DNA of 36,310 nucleotides, from the IMG/VR virus record IMGVR_UViG_3300042273_000209. One strand, written 5' to 3'. The notes under the pieces are model-generated. The model made no database searches, was not told the DNA's origin, and was given only the letters and a program-made list of their open reading frames with translations. Below, piece after piece: positions 513 to 30,126 of this stretch. A program made the translations under genes and the position numbers. Positions within the stretch are counted from its first letter, which is position 1. Every line of letters starts with the position of its first letter. Origin of the DNA: a virus.

Positions 513-757
513 GCATATCGCTCCGAATTCTCTCGCCGCCTGATCGACCTGGTGGTGGAGCGGGCGATGGAGATAGTGGGGGCCTCCTGATGGATTTTCC
601 GCTGACCTGCCCCAGGTGTGGATCACGCGAGATCTGCACGGCGGGGAGGGGAGAGCATCAGACGGAATATGGCCTGCACTGCTCCTCCTGTGGCCACGAG
701 GGGTGGGGGAAAACGATAAGTGAAGCGATAGATCAATGGGAGGCGGTGGAGGAATGA
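509..757 (+). CDS. Lar-family-like restriction alleviation zinc-ribbon protein (putative)
   Basis: CPRCGS...CSSCGHEG...EAIDQWEA pattern; ATGA overlap with upstream stop; alternative start at 590. Confidence 0.5.
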   Translation: MSISLRILSPPDRPGGGAGDGDSGGLLMDFPLTCPRCGSREICTAGRGEHQTEYGLHCSSCGHEGWGKTISEAIDQWEAVEE

Positions 758-1020
758 ATCACACGCCGGGACCGTGGTCTGTAGAGGCAATTTACGCATT
801 GCTGCGATTCGGCAGAAAAAGCGGTGGATCGTGGGACGACATAGGCGAAGAACATGAATTTTTCCCTGACGAAGACGACGCCAATCTCATCGCCGCCGCT
901 CCGGAGATGCTGGAGGCGCTTGAAGCAATGGTGGAGATGGTAGAGATGAACGGGTTGGGCAAACGGTATGCGCTTGACCTTGCCGCGTCCGCCATCACGA
1001 AAGCGAGGGGAGAGGAATGA
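754..1020 (+). CDS. Hypothetical small phage protein (AAAPEMLEALE motif)
   Basis: GGAGG RBS; ATG overlaps upstream stop; motif common in small phage early proteins. Confidence 0.5.
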   Translation: MNHTPGPWSVEAIYALLRFGRKSGGSWDDIGEEHEFFPDEDDANLIAAAPEMLEALEAMVEMVEMNGLGKRYALDLAASAITKARGEE

Positions 1021-1101
1021 GCCACGTGGATGTTGTCGGGCATGTCTACGCCGGGCATGAGGACGAGTTGAATCCCTATCTCGGGCAGGGGGTGGTAGTG
1101 G

Positions 1102-1266
1102 ATGACGTTTGATGAGCTGAAAGCTGTCGTCGTCGAGTGGTACGAGGCTGACGTTGGCAACGCAAAGGCAGACAAGTATTTGCGCCGGATAAACGCACAA
1201 CAGAGACTCGAACTGGCCGCCCGCTGTCTGATTGAAGAGGGCGGGAAGGCGGAGGTGACGGAATGA
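1102..1266 (+). CDS. Hypothetical small protein (54 aa)
   Basis: Hand-found ORF below the ORF-track cutoff; its stop overlaps the ATG of the next small ORF (1263-1397), which in turn overlaps 1394. Confidence 0.3.
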   Translation: MTFDELKAVVVEWYEADVGNAKADKYLRRINAQQRLELAARCLIEEGGKAEVTE

Positions 1267-1393
1267 GCCATACGCAGAAGGCGCTGAAGGCTGGCGACGG
1301 CACGGCGTATAGATGCTACGAGTTTGCGGCAGCCAAGATGGCCTCTCTGGACCTGGCGACGGCTCTGGTGAGTCTACGAAGGGGCGCGAACGA

Positions 1394-1552
1394 ATGACTC
1401 GCCAGCGCTGTCAGATCTATTCCCGCGTCGTCGGATTTCTCACCCCCATCTCGCAGTGGAACAAGGGCAAGCAGGAGGAGTTCAGGGACAGGAAGACGTT
1501 TGATAAGCAGTTGAGGGGCAAACGCATCGGAACGTCACAAACGCATCATTAG
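1394..1552 (+). CDS. Small protein resembling the C-terminal glycyl-radical loop of class III ribonucleotide reductase NrdD
   Basis: SRVVGFLTPISQWNKGKQEEFRDRKTF matches the NrdD C-terminal motif R-V-x-G-Y-L-x-P-x3-W-N-x-GK-Q-x-E; start 1394 preferred over 1313 (better RBS, ATGA coupling). Confidence 0.4.
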   Translation: MTRQRCQIYSRVVGFLTPISQWNKGKQEEFRDRKTFDKQLRGKRIGTSQTHH

Positions 1553-1562
1553 GAGGTTGCCG

Positions 1563-2072
1563 ATGAGCCGCATTGACAAGGTCGTTAGCGTCCTGGAGTT
1601 GCTGTTGAGGAGGCACAAGGAGCCCCTGCTGGTCCTGCTGGGCGAGGTGGATCCGCCGGCGCTTTATCACTGGGCCGAGATCCTTCCCGTCCGCGGAGAG
1701 GATATTGGCCGAGTCGGCCGAGTCGATGGATCGCCTGGTACTCCCGAGCAGGAACGCCTTGTCTCGTCGGTGGACGTCATTGAGAGGGCTATCGACAAGG
1801 CCGGAGGGTGGGCGGGCATTGTCGCGGCAACACGGGAGGTGCGGCAGCGGGAACCGATGGGGTGGAACCTATTCGTCGAGCACGTGCTCTGGGTGGGCGA
1901 GGGCTCGAAGCTCGATCTTGCCGGCGGCCAGCTGGACAAGATCTGCGACAGATACGGGGTTTGCCGGGCGACGGTCTGGAGATGGAGGGCGCAGATCCCC
2001 AGGTTGATCGCTCGACAGGCCTGCCATGGAGGGCAACGGGTCTTCGCCTTCTGGGTCTCCGTGCAACATTAA
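1563..2072 (+). CDS. Hypothetical protein with C-terminal HTH-like segment
   Basis: AGGAGG RBS 6 nt before ATG; C-terminal LDKICDRYGVCRATVWRWR resembles a DNA-binding HTH. Confidence 0.5.
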   Translation: MSRIDKVVSVLELLLRRHKEPLLVLLGEVDPPALYHWAEILPVRGEDIGRVGRVDGSPGTPEQERLVSSVDVIERAIDKAGGWAGIVAATREVRQREPMGWNLFVEHVLWVGEGSKLDLAGGQLDKICDRYGVCRATVWRWRAQIPRLIARQACHGGQRVFAFWVSVQH

Positions 2073-2251
2073 AGTATCATCAAAGTATAGGCTAAACGTG
2101 CTATTGAATATCGGGAATGGGCTGTATGCTTATAGTGTGGCGCAAGTTGGGGGACTGAGTATCGGGCCTCCGCCGCCGACGAGGGACAGATGCCCCTCGA
2201 AAGAGCAGCCTCGGCCACACCTGGCCGGGGCTTTATTTGTGAGGTGAGCCC

Positions 2252-2557
2252 ATGCCAAGGAAGCCAGGGGAGCAGTATGCGACCAAACGGCGCAAGGACA
2301 GAGAGCGACGGTACAACGCCTCCCGTCCTGCACGGCATGGATTCTATGCTTCTCCAGAGTGGAGACGAGTGAGGGATTGGTACCGAACCAGACATCCGCT
2401 CTGTGAGGAGTGCCAGAGACAGGGACGCGTGGCGGCTGCTGAGTTGGTCCACCATAAAGTGGAGATATCAGAGGGTGGCGAGCCGCTGGACGTGGAGAAT
2501 CTAGAAAGCCTTTGCAGGAGCTGTCATAGCAAGGTGCATGGGTTCAAGCAAGGGTAG
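2252..2557 (+). CDS. HNH endonuclease
   Basis: CEECQRQGR...AELVHHKVEI...LESLCRSCHSKVH signature; typical partner of terminase. Confidence 0.8.
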   Translation: MPRKPGEQYATKRRKDRERRYNASRPARHGFYASPEWRRVRDWYRTRHPLCEECQRQGRVAAAELVHHKVEISEGGEPLDVENLESLCRSCHSKVHGFKQG

Positions 2558-2642
2558 GGGGGGGAGTTAGAGTCTACAGCCCTACTTTATTTTTTACGCC
2601 GGGGAGTCGCACGCGAGATTTCGCAAGTTAGGACATGGGGGG

Positions 2643-3134
2643 GTGGCTAAGATCAAAGTGACAAAAAAGCGCGTTGAGGAATTGACTCCATACTCCAGAA
2701 ATTCAAGGACGCACAGCGACGCGCAGGTCGCGCAGATAGCAGCATCTATACGCGAGTTTGGTTTTATAAATCCCGTCTTGGTTGACGCGGAAAACAACAT
2801 CATCGCCGGCCATGGGCGCGTGCTGGCAGCCCGAAAACTCGGTCTTGAGGAAGTGCCGTGTGTACTCCACGATCATCTGACGGAGACGCAGCGCAAGGCG
2901 TATATCCTTGCAGACAACAAACTTGCGCTCAATGCAGGATGGGATGAAGACATGCTCCGCTTGGAATTGCGCGAGCTTGGTGACATGGGTTTTGATTTGG
3001 AGTTGACGGGGTTTGATGAGGTAGAAGTTGAGGCATTAAACCATAAGGTGAATATAGATGATTTTTTTTCAGACAGAGAAGGAGAAGTGCCAAAGGAACC
3101 TAAGTTATGCCCTCATTGTGGTGGTGTTTTATGA
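2643..3134 (+). CDS. ParB-like nuclease-domain protein (possible DpdB-like partner of DpdA)
   Basis: ParB N-terminal motif INPVLVD...IIAGHGRVLAARKLGLEEVPCV; GTG start; stop overlaps start of next gene. Confidence 0.6.
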   Translation: MAKIKVTKKRVEELTPYSRNSRTHSDAQVAQIAASIREFGFINPVLVDAENNIIAGHGRVLAARKLGLEEVPCVLHDHLTETQRKAYILADNKLALNAGWDEDMLRLELRELGDMGFDLELTGFDEVEVEALNHKVNIDDFFSDREGEVPKEPKLCPHCGGVL

Positions 3135-3865
3135 GGATTCACCTTGCGGGGATAGTTAGAGCTAGTTGTTGCATTGAAGAAGCAAGGAAGGCTCTTTTTG
3201 TTCTCGAATCGTTCCAGACTATAAATAGGTGGGTTGTAGAATCAATCCCGTATTGGAAGTCTTTTATCCTTGACAGTGGCGCTTTTACATATATGTCAAA
3301 CACTTCAAAAGGTGGAAGTGTAAATTGGGAAGACTATGTGAGCAGATATGCTGATTTTATCAAAAACCACAAAATCAAACATTACATAGAGCTTGACATT
3401 GATTCAATCGTCGGACTTAAGGAGGTTGAGAGATTACGCAATATCCTTGAAAACAAGGTAGGGTATCCATCAATACCAGTATGGCATAAAAGCAGGGGGA
3501 AAGATGAGTTTATACGCATGTGCCGTGATTACAAATATGTAGCGATTGGTGGAATCGTAACGAAGGAGTTCACACGAAAGGATCATAAATACTTCCCATG
3601 GTTCATAGACAAAGCGCATGAAATGGGAGCGGAGATACACGGGCTGGGATACACTTCAAGCAACTTGAGGAAATACCAATTCGATTCCGTTGATTCCACA
3701 AGCTGGCTTAGTGGCGGAAAATATGGCAGTTTATGCGTCTTGAAAAACAAAAAAATTAAATATGTTACCGTGAAGGGGAAAAAAATTTCACGGGATCAGG
3801 ATGCAAATGTTCATAACTTAAGAACTTGGATTATGTACCAAAAACTATTATACGATGGGAAATAA
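3131..3865 (+). CDS. dpdA: DpdA-like tRNA-guanine-transglycosylase-family protein (putative 7-deazaguanine DNA transglycosylase)
   Basis: ILDSGAFTYM resembles the TGT catalytic DSGGFQ motif; AT-rich cassette next to YhhQ-like gene. Confidence 0.5.
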   Translation: MRIHLAGIVRASCCIEEARKALFVLESFQTINRWVVESIPYWKSFILDSGAFTYMSNTSKGGSVNWEDYVSRYADFIKNHKIKHYIELDIDSIVGLKEVERLRNILENKVGYPSIPVWHKSRGKDEFIRMCRDYKYVAIGGIVTKEFTRKDHKYFPWFIDKAHEMGAEIHGLGYTSSNLRKYQFDSVDSTSWLSGGKYGSLCVLKNKKIKYVTVKGKKISRDQDANVHNLRTWIMYQKLLYDGK

Positions 3866-3877
3866 TCAGGAGGGTTT

Positions 3878-4486
3878 ATGGAAAAAAACAATAGAAACCT
3901 AATCACGATCAATGCTGTTTTTGTAGTCAGTCTTATCATGGCTAATGTCGTGGCGTCGAAAATCGTTGACGTTTTTGGATTTGTAGTTCCCGCTGCCGTT
4001 GTTGCTTACGGGATCACCTTCCTTTGCACGGATGTTATTGGTGAGATTTGGGGGAAGGAAGAAGCAAACAAGACCGTCAAATTGGGGTTTGTTATGCAAA
4101 TCCTATCTCTATGCCTTATCATTTTGGCGATAATGCTTCCGCCGGCGGTTTTTGCTGTTGAAGAGGGAAAGTCTTTTAATTCAATACTGGGGCAATCTGG
4201 AAGGGTGGTAGTTGCTAGTCTTATCGCCTACTTGGTAGCTCAATTCAATGATGTTTATGTTTTCCACAAACTGAAAGGCGCTTGCAACGGAAGAGCAAAG
4301 TGGATTCGGAACAATGGAAGCACTATTTTAAGCCAGTTTTTCGACACTGCAATTTTCATTACTGTGGCGTTTTACGGAGTAGTCCCTGACCTTGGATGGA
4401 TGGTTATCAGTCAGTATGTTGTAAAGGTCGTGATAGCGCTCTGTGATACACCTTTATTCTACTTCTTTACACGTAAAAGTGTATGA
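3878..4486 (+). CDS. yhhQ: Queuosine precursor transporter, YhhQ/DUF165 family
   Basis: Multi-TM protein; VVASLIAYLVAQFNDVYVFHKLK and CTDVIGEIWG resemble E. coli YhhQ; AT-rich. Confidence 0.7.
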   Translation: MEKNNRNLITINAVFVVSLIMANVVASKIVDVFGFVVPAAVVAYGITFLCTDVIGEIWGKEEANKTVKLGFVMQILSLCLIILAIMLPPAVFAVEEGKSFNSILGQSGRVVVASLIAYLVAQFNDVYVFHKLKGACNGRAKWIRNNGSTILSQFFDTAIFITVAFYGVVPDLGWMVISQYVVKVVIALCDTPLFYFFTRKSV

Positions 4487-25463: not shown

Positions 25464-25496
25464 AAGAGTCCCCCTTTAGGGGGCTCTTTTTTTTTG
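25464..25496 (+). terminator. Rho-independent terminator ending the plus-strand late/lysis unit
   Basis: GC hairpin followed by 9 T. Confidence 0.7.
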
Positions 25497-25509
25497 CCTC
25501 CCTTCCACA

Positions 25510-25540
25510 ATAAAAAAGAGGGGCCTTTCGGCCCCTCTCT
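25510..25540 (-). terminator. Rho-independent terminator ending the minus-strand block
   Basis: Minus strand reads gaggggcc-gaaa-ggcccctc then TTTTTT. Confidence 0.7.
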
Positions 25541-25677: not shown

Positions 25678-25974
25678 CTACAAATGCGTATACAGCCCTG
25701 TTTCGGCTGCGAAGACTGCCTGGAGCTGGTCGAAGTAAATGCCTTCGACCGTCTCCTCCGTTTCGACGTCTCCCCACTTCCCCAGCTTGCAAAACCGGAG
25801 GTCGTAGACGTCGGCTGGGGTCAATGTGACCTCCAGGTAGTTATACCTTGCGGATCCCCTGAATTTAAATCGCAGGGAATCCCTTGTAGCCACAAGGTGT
25901 TTTGCACCAGTCATGGCGACAAACATGTTGCCGCCGAGCTGGTCCAGTATCGTCGTTGCTACGGTGGTGTCCAT
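25678..25974 (-). CDS. Hypothetical protein (minus-strand block gene a)
   Basis: GGGGGAGG RBS upstream; balanced composition unlike antisense frames. Confidence 0.6.
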   Translation of the reverse strand: MDTTVATTILDQLGGNMFVAMTGAKHLVATRDSLRFKFRGSARYNYLEVTLTPADVYDLRFCKLGKWGDVETEETVEGIYFDQLQAVFAAETGLYTHL

Positions 25975-26006
25975 TTTCGTCCTCCCCCTTGTTTTTTTAC
26001 CTGACG

Positions 26007-26059
26007 GGCCTCATCAGTGGCGGCGTCACCGCCAGACGCCCGCGAAGGGCGTTTCGGCC
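26007..26059 (-). ncRNA. Type II hammerhead ribozyme motif, copy 1
   Basis: Minus strand: ggcc-GAAA-stem III (cgccc/gggcg)-UC cleavage site-stem I (uggcgg/ccgcca)-CUGAUGA-ggcc; all core nucleotides present. Confidence 0.55.
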
Positions 26060-26089
26060 TAGGCTTCCTCCTCGTCGGGGATATAGTCG

Positions 26090-26127
26090 ACCTTTCGGTG
26101 AAGATGCCAGGGGCCCTTCGGCCCCTG
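26090..26127 (-). repeat. Intercistronic repeat element A (hairpin plus aucuucaccgaaaggu box)
   Basis: Same 16-nt box and flanking GC hairpin recur at 26466-26505. Confidence 0.5.
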
Positions 26128-26144
26128 CCCCCTGGCATTAAGTT

Positions 26145-26435
26145 CTACAGCTCGATGACGTCCGGTGCGTCGCGCAGGATTTTCATGTACCGCAGATGCT
26201 GGTACATGTACTGCGGACCCTGGTTGATCTCGACGACCTCGACCTGGCCGCCGAGGGGTGTGGTGTGCAGAGTGACAACCTCTTCGATGCCCTCGCTGAC
26301 CTCCTCGCGGCTTGCCTCGGCCTCCTCGGTGCCCTCGGGCAGGGCGATGGCGATCCCGTCCTCGTCGCTGCCGGGGTACGTCTCCCAGAACTCCATGTGG
26401 CCCGGAATACGGGAACTCTCGATCCAAAATCCCAT
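26145..26435 (-). CDS. Hypothetical acidic protein (gene b)
   Basis: AAGGAGGG RBS upstream. Confidence 0.6.
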   Translation of the reverse strand: MGFWIESSRIPGHMEFWETYPGSDEDGIAIALPEGTEEAEASREEVSEGIEEVVTLHTTPLGGQVEVVEINQGPQYMYQHLRYMKILRDAPDVIEL

Positions 26436-26465
26436 GGCGATCCCTCCTTTTAGGGGCTATATGCA

Positions 26466-26505
26466 ACCTTTCGGTGAAGATAGTAGGGGCCCGAAGGGCT
26501 CCCGC
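26466..26505 (-). repeat. Intercistronic repeat element B (copy of box plus hairpin)
   Basis: Box identical to copy A; hairpin loop inverted with stem preserved. Confidence 0.5.
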
Positions 26506-26506
26506 G

Positions 26507-27064
26507 CTACGCGTCATCTCCCTTTTTCGCGATCGCCTCACGGGCGTTGTGGATGCCCGTGAGGACGCACGTGTACTCTTCTTTCAGGGCGGCGAGCGCC
26601 ACCCGTTTCCAGGCGGCGAGGGCCTCCTCTGGCGTCGGCGCGCGCCCAATCTCGCACCGACTCTTCATCCAGGAGGTCAGCCGATCGAACTGGCTTAGGC
26701 CCTCGACGCTGAACTCACAAACGTCACGGTATCTGTCGCTGAAACCGTGACGCAGCGTCACCAACCCCTGATGCCTCCCCTGGGCGGGGGAGATATACAG
26801 GTCCTCGACGCCGATGCCGTTGAACACGTCGAGGAAGAATTGCAAGGTGGACTCGATCTCAGACGCGGCGGCGAGTGCCGCCTCCGGGTGGGCGGCTGCC
26901 ATGGCCCGTGTGACCTCGGGGCCATATCCGCGATGCCCCGCCTCCCGGAACACGGCGTACCACCCCGCCGTGCCGTGGGGCGGCGTCGTCGTATCGTGCT
27001 GCTCCACCCCTCCGGAGAAAAAATCATCTCCGTGGGGCATGGGCCCCTCAGTGAACCACGACAT
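26507..27064 (-). CDS. Hypothetical protein (gene c)
   Basis: GAAGGAGGA RBS; protein-like composition. Confidence 0.6.
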   Translation of the reverse strand: MSWFTEGPMPHGDDFFSGGVEQHDTTTPPHGTAGWYAVFREAGHRGYGPEVTRAMAAAHPEAALAAASEIESTLQFFLDVFNGIGVEDLYISPAQGRHQGLVTLRHGFSDRYRDVCEFSVEGLSQFDRLTSWMKSRCEIGRAPTPEEALAAWKRVALAALKEEYTCVLTGIHNAREAIAKKGDDA

Positions 27065-27113
27065 CTTTTTCCTCCTTCCCCCGCCCGTGCGGGAATCAAC
27101 GGGGCCTGTGCCC

Positions 27114-27167
27114 CGGCCTCATCAGTGGCGGCTCTACCGCCAGACGCCCCTTGCGGGGCGTTTCGGC
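27114..27167 (-). ncRNA. Type II hammerhead ribozyme motif, copy 2
   Basis: Same architecture as copy 1; stem III closed by GCAA tetraloop, stem I loop differs; CUGAUGAG and GAAA cores intact. Confidence 0.55.
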
Positions 27168-27551
27168 CTAGGCGTCGTCGACGTCGTCGACGTCCTGCAG
27201 GGCCTCGAGGTGCTCCGCGATGAACTCGCGGAGTAGACGCCGTTTTTCCCTCATCGAGTCGGCCAGCTCGTAGTCTGCCGACTCGCTGACGGGGAGGGGG
27301 TACTCGCTGTACCCCATCCCCTTGCAGATGGCCCGCTCGACCATCTGCAGGAGCTTAAGGTCATACTGCCCCACGGGTTCGCCGTCGTACATCGCGAACC
27401 CGTGGACTAGTGCGTCTTGGACGCTGCGCCCCCACTGGCCAATCGTGCCAGCAGAGGCAAAAAACCCCACGTGGACACTGCTACCGCGCCGGGTGACGCG
27501 GTAGAGATCCCCGCGCCGGATCGGGTCGTGGTGCAATGAGAACCTTTTCAT
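27168..27551 (-). CDS. Hypothetical protein (gene d)
   Basis: GAAGGAGGA RBS before internal ATG; 5' UTR paralogous to that of gene c. Confidence 0.55.
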   Translation of the reverse strand: MKRFSLHHDPIRRGDLYRVTRRGSSVHVGFFASAGTIGQWGRSVQDALVHGFAMYDGEPVGQYDLKLLQMVERAICKGMGYSEYPLPVSESADYELADSMREKRRLLREFIAEHLEALQDVDDVDDA

Positions 27552-27622
27552 TCTGTCCTCCTTCCCCCGCCCCGTGGCGGGAGCACTGTCCCCCCTTGCG
27601 CCCTGTGGCGCAGGAGGGAGGG

Positions 27623-27652
27623 AGAAAAAAGGGGAGCCGAAGCCCCCCCTTT
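27623..27652 (-). terminator. Rho-independent terminator or attenuator after gene e
   Basis: Minus strand: 7-bp GC stem with UUCG tetraloop followed by UUUUUU. Confidence 0.6.
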
Positions 27653-27669
27653 GTCGGCGAGGCCTAGCT

Positions 27670-28116
27670 TCAGGCCTCGCCGTTGGCCCGTGCCGCCATC
27701 CGGCGAGCACGGGCAAGAGAGCCCGCCGGAAGCTCCGGGGCGTAAAAGCCCCGGTGGCGGAAGATTGCTGTCTTCCGCACGGATCCGTCCGGGAGCGTCT
27801 CTTCGACGGACTCCCGTACGGAGAAGGCGTACACGGGCGCGATGCCCGCGTTCGCTAGCTCGCGTTCGAGTGGGGCCATCAGCCACATGGCCCCTCCGAT
27901 CATGGCGAGGACCTCGTCGCCTTCGCCGACGTTCCCCGCCGCCCGCCGGGCGATTTCGGCAATCGCCCGGGCGCGAGCCTCGGGCTCCCCGTCGCGGGGG
28001 AGCTCCGTGAAGGTGAGGAGCTCCTTGAGCTCCTCGTGGTCGGCCCCGGTGAGGTCGACCACCCCGGCCTCGACCTGCTCGGTCGAGGCTTGGTGCTGCG
28101 TGAGATTCAGGATCAT
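27670..28116 (-). CDS. Hypothetical protein (gene e)
   Basis: AAGGAGGG RBS before ATG at 28116; longer upstream extension rejected. Confidence 0.55.
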   Translation of the reverse strand: MILNLTQHQASTEQVEAGVVDLTGADHEELKELLTFTELPRDGEPEARARAIAEIARRAAGNVGEGDEVLAMIGGAMWLMAPLERELANAGIAPVYAFSVRESVEETLPDGSVRKTAIFRHRGFYAPELPAGSLARARRMAARANGEA

Positions 28117-28270
28117 CCTGAATCCCTCCTTTCTGCCCCATCTGGGGGCGATGAGATCGGGCCGAGGCCCGTCGTTTCCTTTGTTCCCCCCGCTTGGCCG
28201 CCCGGAAAGGGCGTTGCCCGCCGACCGCAGCGTGGAGGCGCGGGGGTTGGTCGGCATCTACGGCCAGGAG

Positions 28271-28612
28271 CTAAACCTGGTCGTAGAGTTGTACCTCGCC
28301 GCGTCGGCGAGGCAGGAGGCGGTATTCCGTCACCGCCTCCGCCGAAGGAGCCACGTAGATCGTGGCCCCCACGGCCTTCTTCGCCGATTTCCCCCGCGCA
28401 AGGGGCGCGTAGGGTTCGGCGTCGTGGGCCCGGACGACGTAGATGCTGCCGCCCGGGCCCGCGTACTGCACGGCCTGGTCCCAGGACGTGGTGAAAAACG
28501 CCACGTCCCGGAACCCCCGCCTCTCCTCTTCCCCCGCACGGATGTTTCCCGTGCGGGACGAGGGGAGAATTTCCCTCAGGCCCCGGATGGGGCTCCCATG
28601 TAGAAGTTCCAT
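28271..28612 (-). CDS. PARP-like (H-Y-E type) mini ADP-ribosyltransferase candidate (gene f)
   Basis: LLHGS; F-x10-Y segment FFTTSWDQAVQY; later TEYRLL, read as the H-G-S / Y-x10-Y / catalytic Glu signatures of PARP and diphtheria-toxin-like ARTs. Confidence 0.4.
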   Translation of the reverse strand: MELLHGSPIRGLREILPSSRTGNIRAGEEERRGFRDVAFFTTSWDQAVQYAGPGGSIYVVRAHDAEPYAPLARGKSAKKAVGATIYVAPSAEAVTEYRLLPRRRGEVQLYDQV

Positions 28613-28651
28613 CCGGGGCCCCCTTTCCGGGGCCTCGCGGCCCGTTTCGAC

Positions 28652-29095
28652 CTAGTTCCCCTCCGCCCGCATGAGGCGGAGGGAGAGGGGCAAATCCCAC
28701 GCCGACAGAGTCTCCGCCCTGTCGGCGTCGTCCATCCCGAGGTCCAGACGTCCGTAGGCGTCGTACCTCGGGGCCGGGGCCTTGTCGGCCCCCTCCTCGT
28801 CGGCGCGCTCCTCGGTGATCTCGATTACGATCACCGGGATCGCTTCCAGGCCCGCCAGTCTCGCCGCGGCAATGCGGTGAGACCCGGTGTGGGCCTGGAG
28901 GCCCATGGGTGACTGGGAGGCCAAGATCGGCCGCCCCTGCCACCCATGGGCCTCCATGGATGCCGTCAGGGACGCCAGTTTTTCAGCGTCCCTGACCTCG
29001 TGCGGAGGCTCGACCTCGTTGGGGTCGGCCTCCGCCTCTGCTTCCGTTAGGGTGACCGTCCATAGGTCACCCCACTCGTCCTGGATCTGGGGCAT
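28652..29095 (-). CDS. ParB-like N-terminal-domain protein (gene g)
   Basis: GRPILASQSPMGLQAHTGSHRIAAARLAGLEAIPVIVIE; AAGGAGGTG RBS before ATG 29095 (alternative ATG 29194). Confidence 0.6.
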   Translation of the reverse strand: MPQIQDEWGDLWTVTLTEAEAEADPNEVEPPHEVRDAEKLASLTASMEAHGWQGRPILASQSPMGLQAHTGSHRIAAARLAGLEAIPVIVIEITEERADEEGADKAPAPRYDAYGRLDLGMDDADRAETLSAWDLPLSLRLMRAEGN

Positions 29096-29323
29096 GACGG
29101 TCACCTCCTTCCTTTTTTTTTTGCCCTGGCAGTGGCTGGTGTCGTCGACCTCGCCCGGCTCGCGCTGCCCCTGGGGGGGCTTCGCGGCGGTCATGGCGCG
29201 GGTGGCTGACGACGCTGCCCGATGCCAGTCGATGGGTGCCAGGGGATACTTTCCCGCCCGGCTTTCTGTCGGCCGCCCATCGCGGCCTTCCCGTTGTCAA
29301 GGTCCCTGTCGCTTGGTGATTAC

Positions 29324-29352
29324 ATTATATATGCCGTTGGGCAGTTGTGCAA
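29324..29352 (-). promoter_or_regulatory. Sigma70-like promoter for the minus-strand block (TTGCAC-17-TATAAT)
   Basis: Near-consensus -35 and -10 with 17-nt spacer on the minus strand. Confidence 0.55.
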
Positions 29353-29382
29353 TAGGCCTATAGGACCATCTTGCACAACTGC
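29341..29382. promoter_or_regulatory. Candidate operator: 12-bp perfect inverted repeat GCAGTTGTGCAA-N18-TTGCACAACTGC
   Basis: Perfect 12-bp arms; left arm overlaps the minus-strand -35. Confidence 0.55.
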
Positions 29383-29468: not shown

Positions 29469-29660
29469 ATGTCCAACAACATCCGCAACATCCGCAACAT
29501 CCGCATCGCCACTCCGGCCACGCCGGAGATGGCACGTCAATTTCGTATCGCCTGCGCCGTCGCTGGGCGCAGGCAATCGGAGGTGTTGAGGGAGTTGATC
29601 CAACGATGGGTCAGCTCCCAATCGACGGCCCGCTCAGGCGGGAATGCTGCCAACGGTTGA
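29469..29660 (+). CDS. Ribbon-helix-helix (CopG/Arc-like) DNA-binding protein
   Basis: GAGGAGG RBS; RHH-like segment; contains 3 x 9-nt repeat encoding IRNIRNIRI. Confidence 0.55.
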   Translation: MSNNIRNIRNIRIATPATPEMARQFRIACAVAGRRQSEVLRELIQRWVSSQSTARSGGNAANG

Positions 29661-29844: not shown

Positions 29845-30126
29845 ATGAGCCGCGAGCGGGACGAGATGCGGCAAGCCGTTACGGAGATGACCCTGGTTAG
29901 GCTCCCCGCAATCGGGTATGTACGGCTCCCGCAAATCTTGGCCGTCATCCCGATCGGGCCCACCACGTGGTGGGAGTGGATCAAGGCCGGCATTGCGCCT
30001 TCCCCCATCAAATGGGGGAGCAACGTTTCGGTGTGGGCGGCAGAAGAAATCCTGTCGCTCATAGCCAGGTTGCGCTCCGGGCTCCCCCCAGGGGGAGAGG
30101 CACGAGAAAGGGAGGCGACGAAATGA
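29845..30126 (+). CDS. AlpA-like HTH regulator / excisionase-like protein
   Basis: LPQILAVIPIGPTTWWEWIKAGIAPSPIKWGSNVSVWAAEEI resembles AlpA family; AAGGAGGA RBS. Confidence 0.5.
   Translation: MSRERDEMRQAVTEMTLVRLPAIGYVRLPQILAVIPIGPTTWWEWIKAGIAPSPIKWGSNVSVWAAEEILSLIARLRSGLPPGGEAREREATK

Follow-up and report, generated by a model that had tools for sequence, protein, structure and literature searches.

In prophages, hammerhead ribozymes occur in clusters that flank individual genes or short gene blocks of variable identity, the anti-restriction gene ardA among them, and these clustered ribozymes have been shown to cleave both in vitro and in vivo (PMC3088659). In the arrays described in 2011 by Perreault, several type II hammerheads lie between the small genes of one phage transcription unit, the identities of those genes vary among relatives, and the role proposed for the ribozymes is to turn a long transcript into gene-length mRNAs (PMC3088659). 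Hammerhead and twister ribozymes have the same neighbouring genes, and the reason for this, reviews of the subject still say, "has not yet been determined" (PMC6765202). Here we describe a block of seven small genes on the minus strand of a viral genome of 36,310 nucleotides (nt), the IMG/VR record IMGVR_UViG_3300042273_000209, and we refer to this whole stretch of DNA as the window. The block is punctuated by three candidate self-cleaving ribozymes of two unrelated classes, and we consider it rather probable that it is an early, repressor-controlled accessory operon for counter-defence or host takeover, the transcript of which would be processed by these ribozymes.

A second group of described systems concerns the proteins that phages use against CRISPR. 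Csx20 is a demonstrated ring nuclease that acts on cyclic tetra-adenylate (cA4) of type III CRISPR systems, and it has been found in four phage genomes (PMC12409355). The csx20 operons are repressed through inverted repeats in their promoters by Aca14, a ribbon-helix-helix (RHH) protein (PMC13551039). The small protein MJ_1673 has been associated with type III-A systems (PMC3973734), and AcrIF11 is an anti-CRISPR protein that is an ADP-ribosyltransferase (ART) (PMC12421852). Our literature search found no paper that links natural ribozymes to anti-CRISPR operons. In the synthetic insulator RiboJ, a self-cleaving ribozyme is followed by a hairpin just upstream of the ribosome-binding site (RBS), and this arrangement gives the downstream mRNA a constant 5′ end, regardless of the sequence that precedes it.

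The block shares something with each of these systems and departs from each of them. To the elements of the Perreault arrays it adds a ribozyme class that resembles the ribozyme of hepatitis delta virus (HDV), a fixed leader of hairpin and RBS that moves with the ribozyme, and ribozyme relics at the joints between cassettes; it also carries a homologue of a type III CRISPR ring nuclease together with an ART-fold protein, under a promoter that bears a candidate operator. With the Csx20/Aca14 operons and the AcrIII-1 strategy it has in common the family match of one of its genes, the known phage copies of that family, and an inverted repeat in the promoter beside a small candidate regulator; the differences are that this regulator is divergent rather than co-transcribed and has no similarity to Aca14, and that the operon is much larger and is interrupted by ribozymes. 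As in RiboJ, each unit consists of a self-cleaving ribozyme candidate and then a hairpin just upstream of the RBS, but the units of the block are natural, come in several classes and versions, and have an insulating effect that we infer. Each ingredient is thus of a known kind, while the combination and the swappable ribozyme-leader units are new.

Results

Layout of the block

The window is a complete genome of siphovirus type, about 36 kb long and about 60% GC. On its plus strand the genes for terminase, portal, major head protein, tape measure, tail fibre J and endolysin come before RecE/RecT-like genes and genes for replication. The terminase has at most about 50% identity to any known terminase, and a megablast search with the block against 50,697 phage records gave no match and no near-identical annotated phage. 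Genes were called with a codon-usage model trained on five structural genes, and the start codons of the block genes were picked by their GGAGG-type RBSs. This yielded 54 genes, exactly seven of which (g1 to g7; Table 1) lie on the minus strand. A preliminary description of this DNA, made from the letters of the sequence, had already proposed seven such genes between the lysis genes and the regulatory and recombination genes, and both statements hold: the stop coordinates are the same, and matches of the flanking genes place the block past the endolysin/holin-like genes and ahead of a small divergent gene, an excisionase (Xis)-like helix-turn-helix (HTH) gene and the RecE/RecT-like and replication genes. 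The GC content at third codon positions is 0.82-0.89 in six of the seven genes, above the roughly 0.6-0.75 of the structural genes, which sets the block apart in composition. The same description had also recognised hammerheads, repeated hairpin boxes, an internal terminator, a ParB-like protein and a PARP-like mini-ART, and each of these stands, in the form given below.

Ribozyme candidates at the gene junctions

An Rfam search of the window at gathering thresholds gave no hit. When matches were instead reported by E-value across the 36 kb, on either strand, the only ribozyme candidates were three in the block, one HDV-like and two hammerheads, and all three lie in intergenic gaps on the coding strand of the block. 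The hammerheads have the type II topology, in which stems I and III are closed by loops and stem II is open, and three stems can be formed in both copies. Hammerhead 1 begins within the stop codon of g4; it has the core CUGAUGA/GAAA, the triplet GUC (27145-27143) and stems II, III and I of 4, 7 and 7 bp, and its predicted cleavage falls between 27143 and 27142. Hammerhead 2 also has a complete core, with the triplet GUC at 26037-26035, stems of 4/6/7 bp and predicted cleavage between 26035 and 26034.

Comparison of eight intact hammerheads, two from the window and six from relatives, shows what is held constant and what varies. In all eight the core reads CUGA(U/C)GA and GAAA, A15.1 pairs with U16.1, the triplet is GUC or GUA, and three stems are present. 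The copies differ in stem III by double compensatory changes (CGCCCC:GGGGCG, CGGGCC:GGCCCG, CCGCGCC:GGCGCGG), and stem II occurs as GGCC/GGCC, GGUC/GGCC and GUC/GAC. A related hammerhead in the viral contig L003 scores 46.5 bits, which is above the RF02276 threshold. Intact core, triplet and stems, together with the covariation of stem III, argue that both hammerheads of the window are real, and cleavage is predicted for both.

A further pairing can be drawn within hammerhead 2, where CGUCAG in the 3′ tail that follows stem II (region 26017-26001, minus strand) is complementary to CUGAUG of the catalytic core. Many members of the hammerhead subfamily show such complementarity, and it covaries with core position 7, as CUGAC...GUCAG in seven copies from five phages and as CUGAUG...CAUCAG in two copies (contig set L038-L044). 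The pairing may represent an off-state, or, once cleavage has taken place, it may lock the downstream mRNA at its 5′ end.

The HDV-like candidate, which the preliminary description had overlooked, lies ahead of g5. Its best-scoring model is the HDV-like ribozyme of Faecalibacterium prausnitzii (RF02682), with an E-value of 2e-4 in a search of 5 kb and 1.5e-3 in the whole window. The match to that ribozyme is full-length, includes all helices and the J4/2 cytosine, and has a bacterial or phage context in common with it; the differences are the score, which lies below the gathering threshold, and one mismatch in P3. In the nested double pseudoknot, P1 forms 7 of 7 pairs, P2 7 of 7, P3 2 of 3, P1.1 2 of 2 and P4 5 of 5; J4/2 reads GCCAA, and the candidate catalytic C is at ribozyme position 59, which is position 28197 of the window. 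The activity of the element is predicted, with cleavage between 28256 and 28255, 15 nt past the stop codon of g6, and because of this position the ribozyme would remain on the 5′ end of the g5 mRNA.

A truncated hammerhead in the gap between g7 and g6 had likewise been missed. This gap of 39 nt amounts to the 5′ half of a hammerhead: it retains the 5′ strand of stem II, the GAAAC sequence and the hairpin of stem III, and shares 96% identity with the 5′ part of an intact hammerhead in L010, a close relative of the phage. Since stem I and CUGAUGA are missing, we regard the element as a relic. A second relic lies in that relative (L010:700-724), ahead of its g5 homologue. Both relics retain the same three parts, and both end 1-3 nt from the would-be cleavage site; this common end point could be a coincidence, or it could reflect recombination near the cleavage site.

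Gene exchange among relatives

The contigs L012-L016 represent the same phage as the window. They seemed at first sight to include strain variants with a different g3 and g2 (177 and 83 aa), which we rejected as an artefact of start calling, the contigs being 99.8-100% identical to the window. The relative L010 is more informative. It begins with a promoter region that is 96% conserved, followed by an 86-aa gene, a hammerhead, a 72-aa gene, the hammerhead relic, the g5 homologue, a 158-aa gene and a hammerhead, and then by a 107-aa gene, a g1-like gene, a hammerhead and homologues of g3 and g2; g7, g6 and the HDV-like element are absent from it. Comparison with related phages had been named beforehand as a way to see whether the block is accessory, and with the same promoter in front of a different gene set it is: the block is accessory and mosaic among relatives, and hammerheads or relics stand at the junctions of the L010 gene set.

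The units that stand at these junctions are themselves conserved. A stretch of 106 nt with hammerhead, GGGGCACAGGCCCC hairpin and hairpin/RBS unit is 88.7% identical in the two genomes, and it precedes g3 in the window and a different gene, of 72 aa, in L010. The slot upstream of g5 is occupied by the intact HDV-like ribozyme in the window and by the hammerhead relic in L010. Box B, one of two repeated sequences discussed below, is absent from L010, where the gap between g3 and g2 is about 12 nt.

The same hammerhead subfamily is present in eight further viral contigs from unrelated phages of lower GC content, often in two or three copies each. There each hammerhead starts at or just past the stop codon of a small gene, ahead of another gene. 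Almost all of the flanking proteins are unknown; one belongs to the TreK family. Two contigs offer observations of another kind. In L027 an IS605 OrfB/TnpB gene with a Cas12f1-like_TNB domain (1253-2443, minus strand) stands directly after the homologues of the g3-g2 pair, so other mobile elements do insert into the accessory region. L003 (region 727-4226) is an unrelated viral contig in which a homologue of g5 is also present; its type II hammerhead lies between a 68-aa gene and the gene of a 1157-aa protein with a methyltransferase domain, a candidate polyvalent or anti-restriction protein.

It might be argued that the ribozymes are functionless passengers, repeats spread by recombination and possibly inactive, within an otherwise ordinary polycistronic operon. 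All three score below their gathering thresholds, the two truncated relics bear witness to decay and to dispensability at some junctions, and the hammerhead copies within the phage group are very similar. Against this, every intact copy retains the catalytic core and a valid triplet, and the changes in stem III are compensatory; two unrelated ribozyme classes occupy equivalent slots; the placement at or just past stop codons recurs in the eight unrelated contigs; and cleavage of similar arrays in prophages has been seen both in vitro and in vivo (PMC3088659). We think passengers a very unlikely explanation, and we regard the ribozymes, with the leaders attached to them, as the organising feature of the block rather than the mere decoration that the preliminary description had made of them.

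Encoded proteins

The preliminary description left five of the seven proteins unassigned. This no longer applies to g5, which is probably a protein of the Csx20/MJ1673 family and, by its sequence, a candidate cA4 ring nuclease. Residues 4-124 align with positions 3-121 of the 124 of the NCBIfam Csx20 profile (NF040559; E 1e-7), and the PADLOC Csx20 model gives an E-value of 1.2e-7. There are more than 1300 homologues, all of which carry the precomputed tag PF27247:MJ1673, and in an alignment of 30 sequences of the family g5 retains 23 of 23 invariant columns. Phage homologues occur in RM378, Pm86 and JD-Fnp4; homologues are found in many phage backbones, often at the edge of a module or first in an operon. 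The gene itself sits in a phage operon, outside any type III CRISPR-Cas locus, as expected for a co-opted viral copy. Searches of the PDB by sequence only, with g5 and with g6, gave nothing significant.

For g6 the evidence is at the level of the fold, where the ART proposed earlier is supported. No Pfam match is obtained with g6 itself, but 13 of the 38 members of its family match PF18760 (ART-PolyVal) weakly, with a best E-value of 5.6e-4; the family profile found no PDB sequence. The nearest solved structures are the toxins pertussis S1, TreX, EcPltA and heat-labile enterotoxin. A first structure model, built on four sequences, was discarded (predicted local distance difference test, pLDDT, 58). 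Within the family H5 is invariant in the motif L[YF]HGS, R31 is invariant and Y50 is nearly so. The ART fold, the N-terminal H-G-S motif, the later conserved Tyr, the size of 113 aa and the carriage on mobile elements are shared with ART-PolyVal, AcrIF11 and Arr. We take g6 to be a 113-aa minimal protein of the ADP-ribosyltransferase fold from a rare family, with catalysis in a pocket for nicotinamide adenine dinucleotide (NAD) as a prediction. The start codon of g6 lies inside a hairpin with 20-nt arms (28635-28578, minus strand), its Shine-Dalgarno sequence is the weakest among the seven genes, and it is downstream of the dead hammerhead relic; its translation may be coupled to that of g7.

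The toxin-like neighbours of g6 give some colour to a reading in which CRISPR plays no part. The block would then be a host-takeover or toxin module, in which the ART of g6 modifies some host protein of central importance, for instance RNA polymerase or EF-Tu, in the manner of T4 Alt/ModA/ModB or of the Rhs toxin TreTu, the other small proteins redirect host metabolism, and g5 has a role unrelated to CRISPR signalling. Most block proteins have no defence-related match, which is in keeping with this. The TreK family, to which one hammerhead-flanked gene in another phage belongs, is presumably part of an early host-takeover region of Staphylococcus phages. The end-to-end alignment of g5 with a ring-nuclease family associated with type III CRISPR speaks against a pure takeover module, as does the fact that the published csx20 genes of phages lie in anti-CRISPR operons (PMC13551039). 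We judge such a module unlikely as the whole explanation; takeover and counter-defence are in any case compatible within one operon.

The first gene of the block, g7, encodes the ParB-like protein. Residues ~26-98 of its 147 match Pfam ParB_N (PF02195) with 27.7 bits against a cut-off of 26.3, PHROG families of ParB-like proteins are matched as well, and TIGR00180 parB scores 28.5 against a cut-off of 58.45. Direct reading finds a stretch, GSHRIAAARLAG, that resembles the GxxRxxA box. The protein has a net charge of -17, and its gene is preceded by the RBS AAGGAAGGAGG. Family searches found no HTH and no dimerisation domain in g7, and no gene for a ParA or other nucleoside triphosphatase (NTPase) partner in the block. 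Within the part of g7 that encodes ParB_N lies an inverted repeat (28896-28956) with 22-nt arms, 91% complementary, and a 17-nt loop; each arm has the palindrome CCCATGGG. Repeats of this length are unusual in coding regions, and this one could be bound by a protein or form a structure in the RNA.

These matches and the long repeat with its palindromes are what a plasmid-type partition or maintenance module built around g7 would lead one to look for. Only the N-terminal ParB/Srx-fold domain is there, however, strongly acidic and without HTH, dimerisation domain or NTPase partner, so g7 is not a partition protein, and L010 dispenses with g7 altogether. We rejected the partition module, to which we attach hardly any probability.

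The remaining four proteins are harder to place. Apart from a non-significant match of its C-terminal part to RelB-like proteins, g4 matches no family. For g3, five homologues were found in 5.8 billion proteins and none in annotated phages; it is linked to g2 in both L010 and L027. The g2 protein has a net charge of -15 and no family match, so that g2, g3 and g4 remain without assignment, as before. By contrast g1 is a member of phrog_9437 (E 9e-28), and tblastn finds it in 55 records from phages and 882 from plasmids, 740 of the latter conjugative, where it is never annotated; its neighbours in one phage and two plasmids were all hypothetical proteins.

Promoter and candidate regulator

The block is preceded by the only site in the 36-kb window that matches the sigma-70 consensus at 10 of 12 positions. 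Fourteen other sites score 9 of 12, a number equal to that in shuffled sequence. The promoter had been called near-consensus, which is accurate for its -10 element, TATAAT, and not for its -35 element, TTGCAC. Over it lies the 12-bp inverted repeat that had also been reported; its two arms are perfect reverse complements of each other, and the -35 hexamer falls within the right one. No further exact copy of the arms occurs in the window, and two matches with two mismatches are at chance level. Between promoter and g7 extends a leader of about 220 nt without an Rfam match, and the leader in L010 is shorter and different.

Beside this region, and divergent from the block, is a gene for a protein of 63 aa, which from its position we infer to be a candidate small regulator of the block promoter. 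It is possibly an RHH protein. Its RHH matches are all below threshold (ParG, E 0.13; 56B_RHH, E 0.29; a ParG chain, E 0.94), a weak match links it to phrog_29293 (E 0.0035), a PHROG family of unknown function, and a PDB search by sequence only gave nothing significant. BLASTP produced no alignment between it and the RHH protein of Pm86, which is of Aca14 type and adjoins csx20, and the idea of an Aca14 homologue was rejected for this lack of similarity.

Leader hairpins, boxes and terminators

The spacers of the block contain, in addition to ribozymes, a set of recurring hairpins. The spacer between g5 and g4 folds with a minimum free energy of -67.5 kcal/mol (z = -3.0 against shuffles). A terminator scan finds in it, at 27649-27632 and followed by a U run, the terminator-like hairpin after g5 that had been described as an internal terminator. 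Further on, in the region 27631-27552, the C/U-rich tract CUCCCUCCCUCC can pair with the Shine-Dalgarno region of g4, which suggests translational masking, or a structure-dependent switch past the internal terminator. A 17-nt hairpin/RBS unit is repeated exactly before g4 (27572-27556) and before g3.

Two boxes of 50 nt, A and B, are 80% identical, and each has a GC hairpin 5′ of it, in line with the repeated hairpin boxes reported earlier. Five copies of the box are known: the two in the window, a diverged one between the hammerhead and the g3 leader of L027 (83-125), and one each in L032 (1711-1737) and L036 (5114-5140). What they conserve is AUCUUCAC(C/U)GAAAG-N7-AUA-N-CCCC, always with a GC hairpin upstream. 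The last two copies are in genome bins of Synergistales/Synergistaceae, where the box lies within a type III CRISPR-Cas locus and has a RAMP gene on one side and cas10 on the other, with a terminator-like hairpin before it and GGAGGG-AUG immediately after. Between these two genomes the sequence of the hairpin is wholly different, and from the box onward identity is about 95%; it remains at a high level across the downstream gene and is greater there than in the flanking cas gene. Because identity jumps at the box, the box marks the 5′ edge of a separately acquired gene cassette. It also hints at a host among the Synergistaceae with type III CRISPR, which is consistent with g5.

Several identities for the boxes were considered. 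A new class of ribozyme was rejected for now, as there is no Rfam match at the laxest filters and folding is no better than in shuffles; RNAalifold gives only the upstream hairpin and a CCCC:GGAGG mini-stem, with a conserved core that is unpaired and without covariation. Coding sequence was rejected because the differences between copies have no third-position bias and an overlapping 59-aa open reading frame has no RBS. As sigma-70 promoters the boxes find no match in the promoter scan, though other promoter types are possible. Strict box patterns found nothing real in viral, genome and metagenome collections, and seven of nine matches to a degenerate pattern were chance. A promoter, a regulator site and a mobile leader are the possibilities that we consider for the box.

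The boxes bear on one more account of the block, in which it consists of lysogeny-associated morons or a superinfection-exclusion module, expressed from the prophage, independently of the lytic genes, to benefit or protect the lysogen; the block would be made up of separate cassettes, with internal promoters in the boxes and terminators in the hairpins. The block does occupy a slot in which temperate phages keep lysogeny and moron genes, close to an Xis-like HTH gene, and the behaviour of hairpin plus box at the edge of an acquired cassette in the two Synergistaceae genomes is moron-like. Yet the 54 genes predicted in the window include neither an integrase nor a repressor that can be recognised, and the boxes hold no sigma-70 promoter that the scan detects. 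A ring nuclease would moreover disable the lysogen's own type III system, and an operator laid over the promoter fits a burst followed by shut-off better than constitutive expression from a prophage. We hold morons to be quite unlikely.

At its far end the block is closed by a minus-strand terminator, read directly from the sequence, which faces the plus-strand terminator of the lysis genes; the two are convergent within 25464-25540.

Table 1. Positions in the window of the genes of the block and of its RNA and control elements
Feature	Position	Strand	Description
Candidate operator	29382-29341	.	12-bp arms GCAGTTGTGCAA (29382-29371) and TTGCACAACTGC (29352-29341), 18-bp spacer
Block promoter	29352-29324	-	-35 TTGCAC 29352-29347, 17-nt spacer, -10 TATAAT 29329-29324
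Divergent 63-aa gene	29469-29660 (span 29660-29469)	+	Sub-threshold family matches only
5′ leader of g7	29317-29096	-	~220 nt; no Rfam match
g7	29095-28652	-	RBS-supported start; 147 aa
Truncated hammerhead relic, g7-g6 gap	28652-28630	-	Overlaps g7 stop codon
g6	28612-28271	-	RBS-supported start; 113 aa
HDV-like ribozyme candidate	28255-28185	-	RF02682, 37.3 bits (gathering 44), model positions 1-74
g5	28116-27670	-	RBS-supported start; 148 aa
g5-g4 spacer	27669-27552	-	Terminator-like hairpin and U run, C/U-rich tract, hairpin-RBS unit
g4	27551-27168	-	RBS-supported start; 127 aa
Type II hammerhead 1 (candidate)	27168-27108	-	RF02276, 34.0 bits (gathering 37), E 3e-4 in 5-kb search
Hammerhead 1 leader hairpins and RBS	27107-27065	-	GGGGCACAGGCCCC, then CCCGCACGGGCGGG-GGAAGGAGGA
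g3	27064-26507	-	RBS-supported start; 185 aa
GC hairpin and box B (26492-26443)	26506-26436	-	Leads into g2 RBS
g2	26435-26145	-	RBS-supported start; 96 aa
GC hairpin and box A (26116-26067)	26144-26060	-	Abuts hammerhead 2
Type II hammerhead 2 (candidate)	26059-26001	-	RF02276, 29.0 bits (gathering 37), E 7e-3 in 5-kb search
g1	25974-25678	-	RBS-supported start; 98 aa
Minus-strand terminator closing the block	~25536-25511	-	Hairpin AGGGGCCGAAAGGCCCCU and U6, read directly
Plus-strand terminator closing the lysis genes	25464-25488	+	Terminator scan

Neighbouring regions

Near the control region, at 29845-30126 on the plus strand, lies the gene of an excisionase/MerR-like HTH protein (phrog_66, 3e-4). 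Elsewhere in the window, directly upstream of the terminase, is an island of low GC content (2643-4486, plus strand; GC 0.40-0.46), in which third-position GC is 0.41-0.51, compared with about 0.7 elsewhere. It encodes a strong match to ParB-like nuclease/partition proteins (phrog_620, 4e-59), a protein like queuine tRNA-ribosyltransferases of the DpdA/TGT type (phrog_887, 8e-49) and a phrog_4899 protein, and it looks like a separate, horizontally acquired module for DNA modification, that is, for anti-restriction.

Discussion

The features described above can be joined into a single course of events. Host RNA polymerase would read the block leftward from the strongest sigma-70 promoter of the genome, probably upon entry of the DNA, until the product of the divergent 63-aa gene binds the inverted repeat over the -35 element and shuts the promoter off, much as Aca repressors do. 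The long RNA would be cut at three sites, by the HDV-like ribozyme ahead of g5, by hammerhead 1 ahead of g3 and by hammerhead 2 ahead of g1, to leave four messages: g7-g6, g5-g4, g3-g2 and g1. Three of the four would start with a 5′-OH and a fixed structured leader with its RBS, and, owing to a leaky internal terminator past g5, the genes closest to the promoter would be represented most abundantly. Together, ribozyme, hairpin and RBS would form a portable unit that renders the expression of the following gene independent of the sequence upstream, and relatives would exchange gene cassettes at these units, leaving relics behind. Among the encoded proteins, g5 would break down the cA4 that serves type III CRISPR systems as a signal, and g6 would ADP-ribosylate a host or defence target, alongside the ParB N-domain protein g7, g4, g3, the acidic g2 and the widespread g1 as unassigned accessory proteins.

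Four observations make counter-defence or takeover the best reading of the locus: the block is accessory and mosaic, it stands behind the strongest promoter with an operator-like repeat, g5 probably belongs to the Csx20 family, and g6 has the ART fold. That the ribozyme and its leader would act as portable insulator and recombination joint is suggested by the conserved unit ahead of different genes, by the interchangeable ribozyme classes in one slot and by the relics. The preliminary description had offered the block as an undescribed module for host takeover, anti-defence or superinfection exclusion. An accessory module for the first two purposes is also what our analysis favours, while superinfection exclusion receives no specific support; and "undescribed" was too strong a word, as hammerhead arrays (PMC3088659), csx20 operons (PMC12409355, PMC13551039) and AcrIF11 (PMC12421852) have all been published.

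A number of points weigh against our interpretation. None of the three ribozyme candidates reaches its Rfam gathering threshold. For the HDV-like element there is no diverged homologue in which covariation could be seen, since its other copies are 100% identical and come from the same phage, and the relics, one between g7 and g6 and the other ahead of g5 in L010, show that some junctions can do without cleavage. The g5 protein scores 32.4 bits against the NCBIfam cut-off of 70 that defines the Csx20 equivalog. In the g6 family there is no conserved catalytic Glu in the C-terminal strands, so that the protein may bind NAD without transfer, or may use a substrate other than protein. Four of the seven proteins come without a functional clue. 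The layout is the sole source for early timing and for repression, the RHH matches of the candidate regulator are below threshold and its sequence is unrelated to Aca14, and the hint of a Synergistaceae host comes from one short motif.

A more general proposal, which we make tentatively and think less probable than its opposite, is that the neighbourhoods of self-cleaving ribozymes in bacteria and phages are cassettes for counter-defence and takeover, in which ribozyme, hairpin and RBS form a portable insulator and the repeats serve as recombination joints. Genes could then be exchanged without constraint, as every cassette either carries a leader of its own or encounters one, and cleavage would give that leader an identical 5′ end each time; the ribozymes might be the joints themselves, because the relics end near the site of cleavage. 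As a bolder corollary, the cutting of a nascent early transcript would also blunt the transcription-coupled attack of type III CRISPR, with the ring nuclease clearing the cA4 that remains.

The locus is a compact test case for these ideas, with two ribozyme classes and a relic in one operon, and a second relic and reshuffled cassettes in a close relative. It places g5, a Csx20-like protein from a family with a biochemically defined counter-defence activity, in this setting. The block also adds a phage-borne member to the Csx20 family, along with a rare family of minimal ART-fold proteins of 113 aa and five unassigned candidates for anti-defence screens. If the ribozyme-leader units do insulate, this would explain both the interchangeable class of the ribozyme and the variable identity of the genes that flank it, and the units would offer natural parts for synthetic operons.

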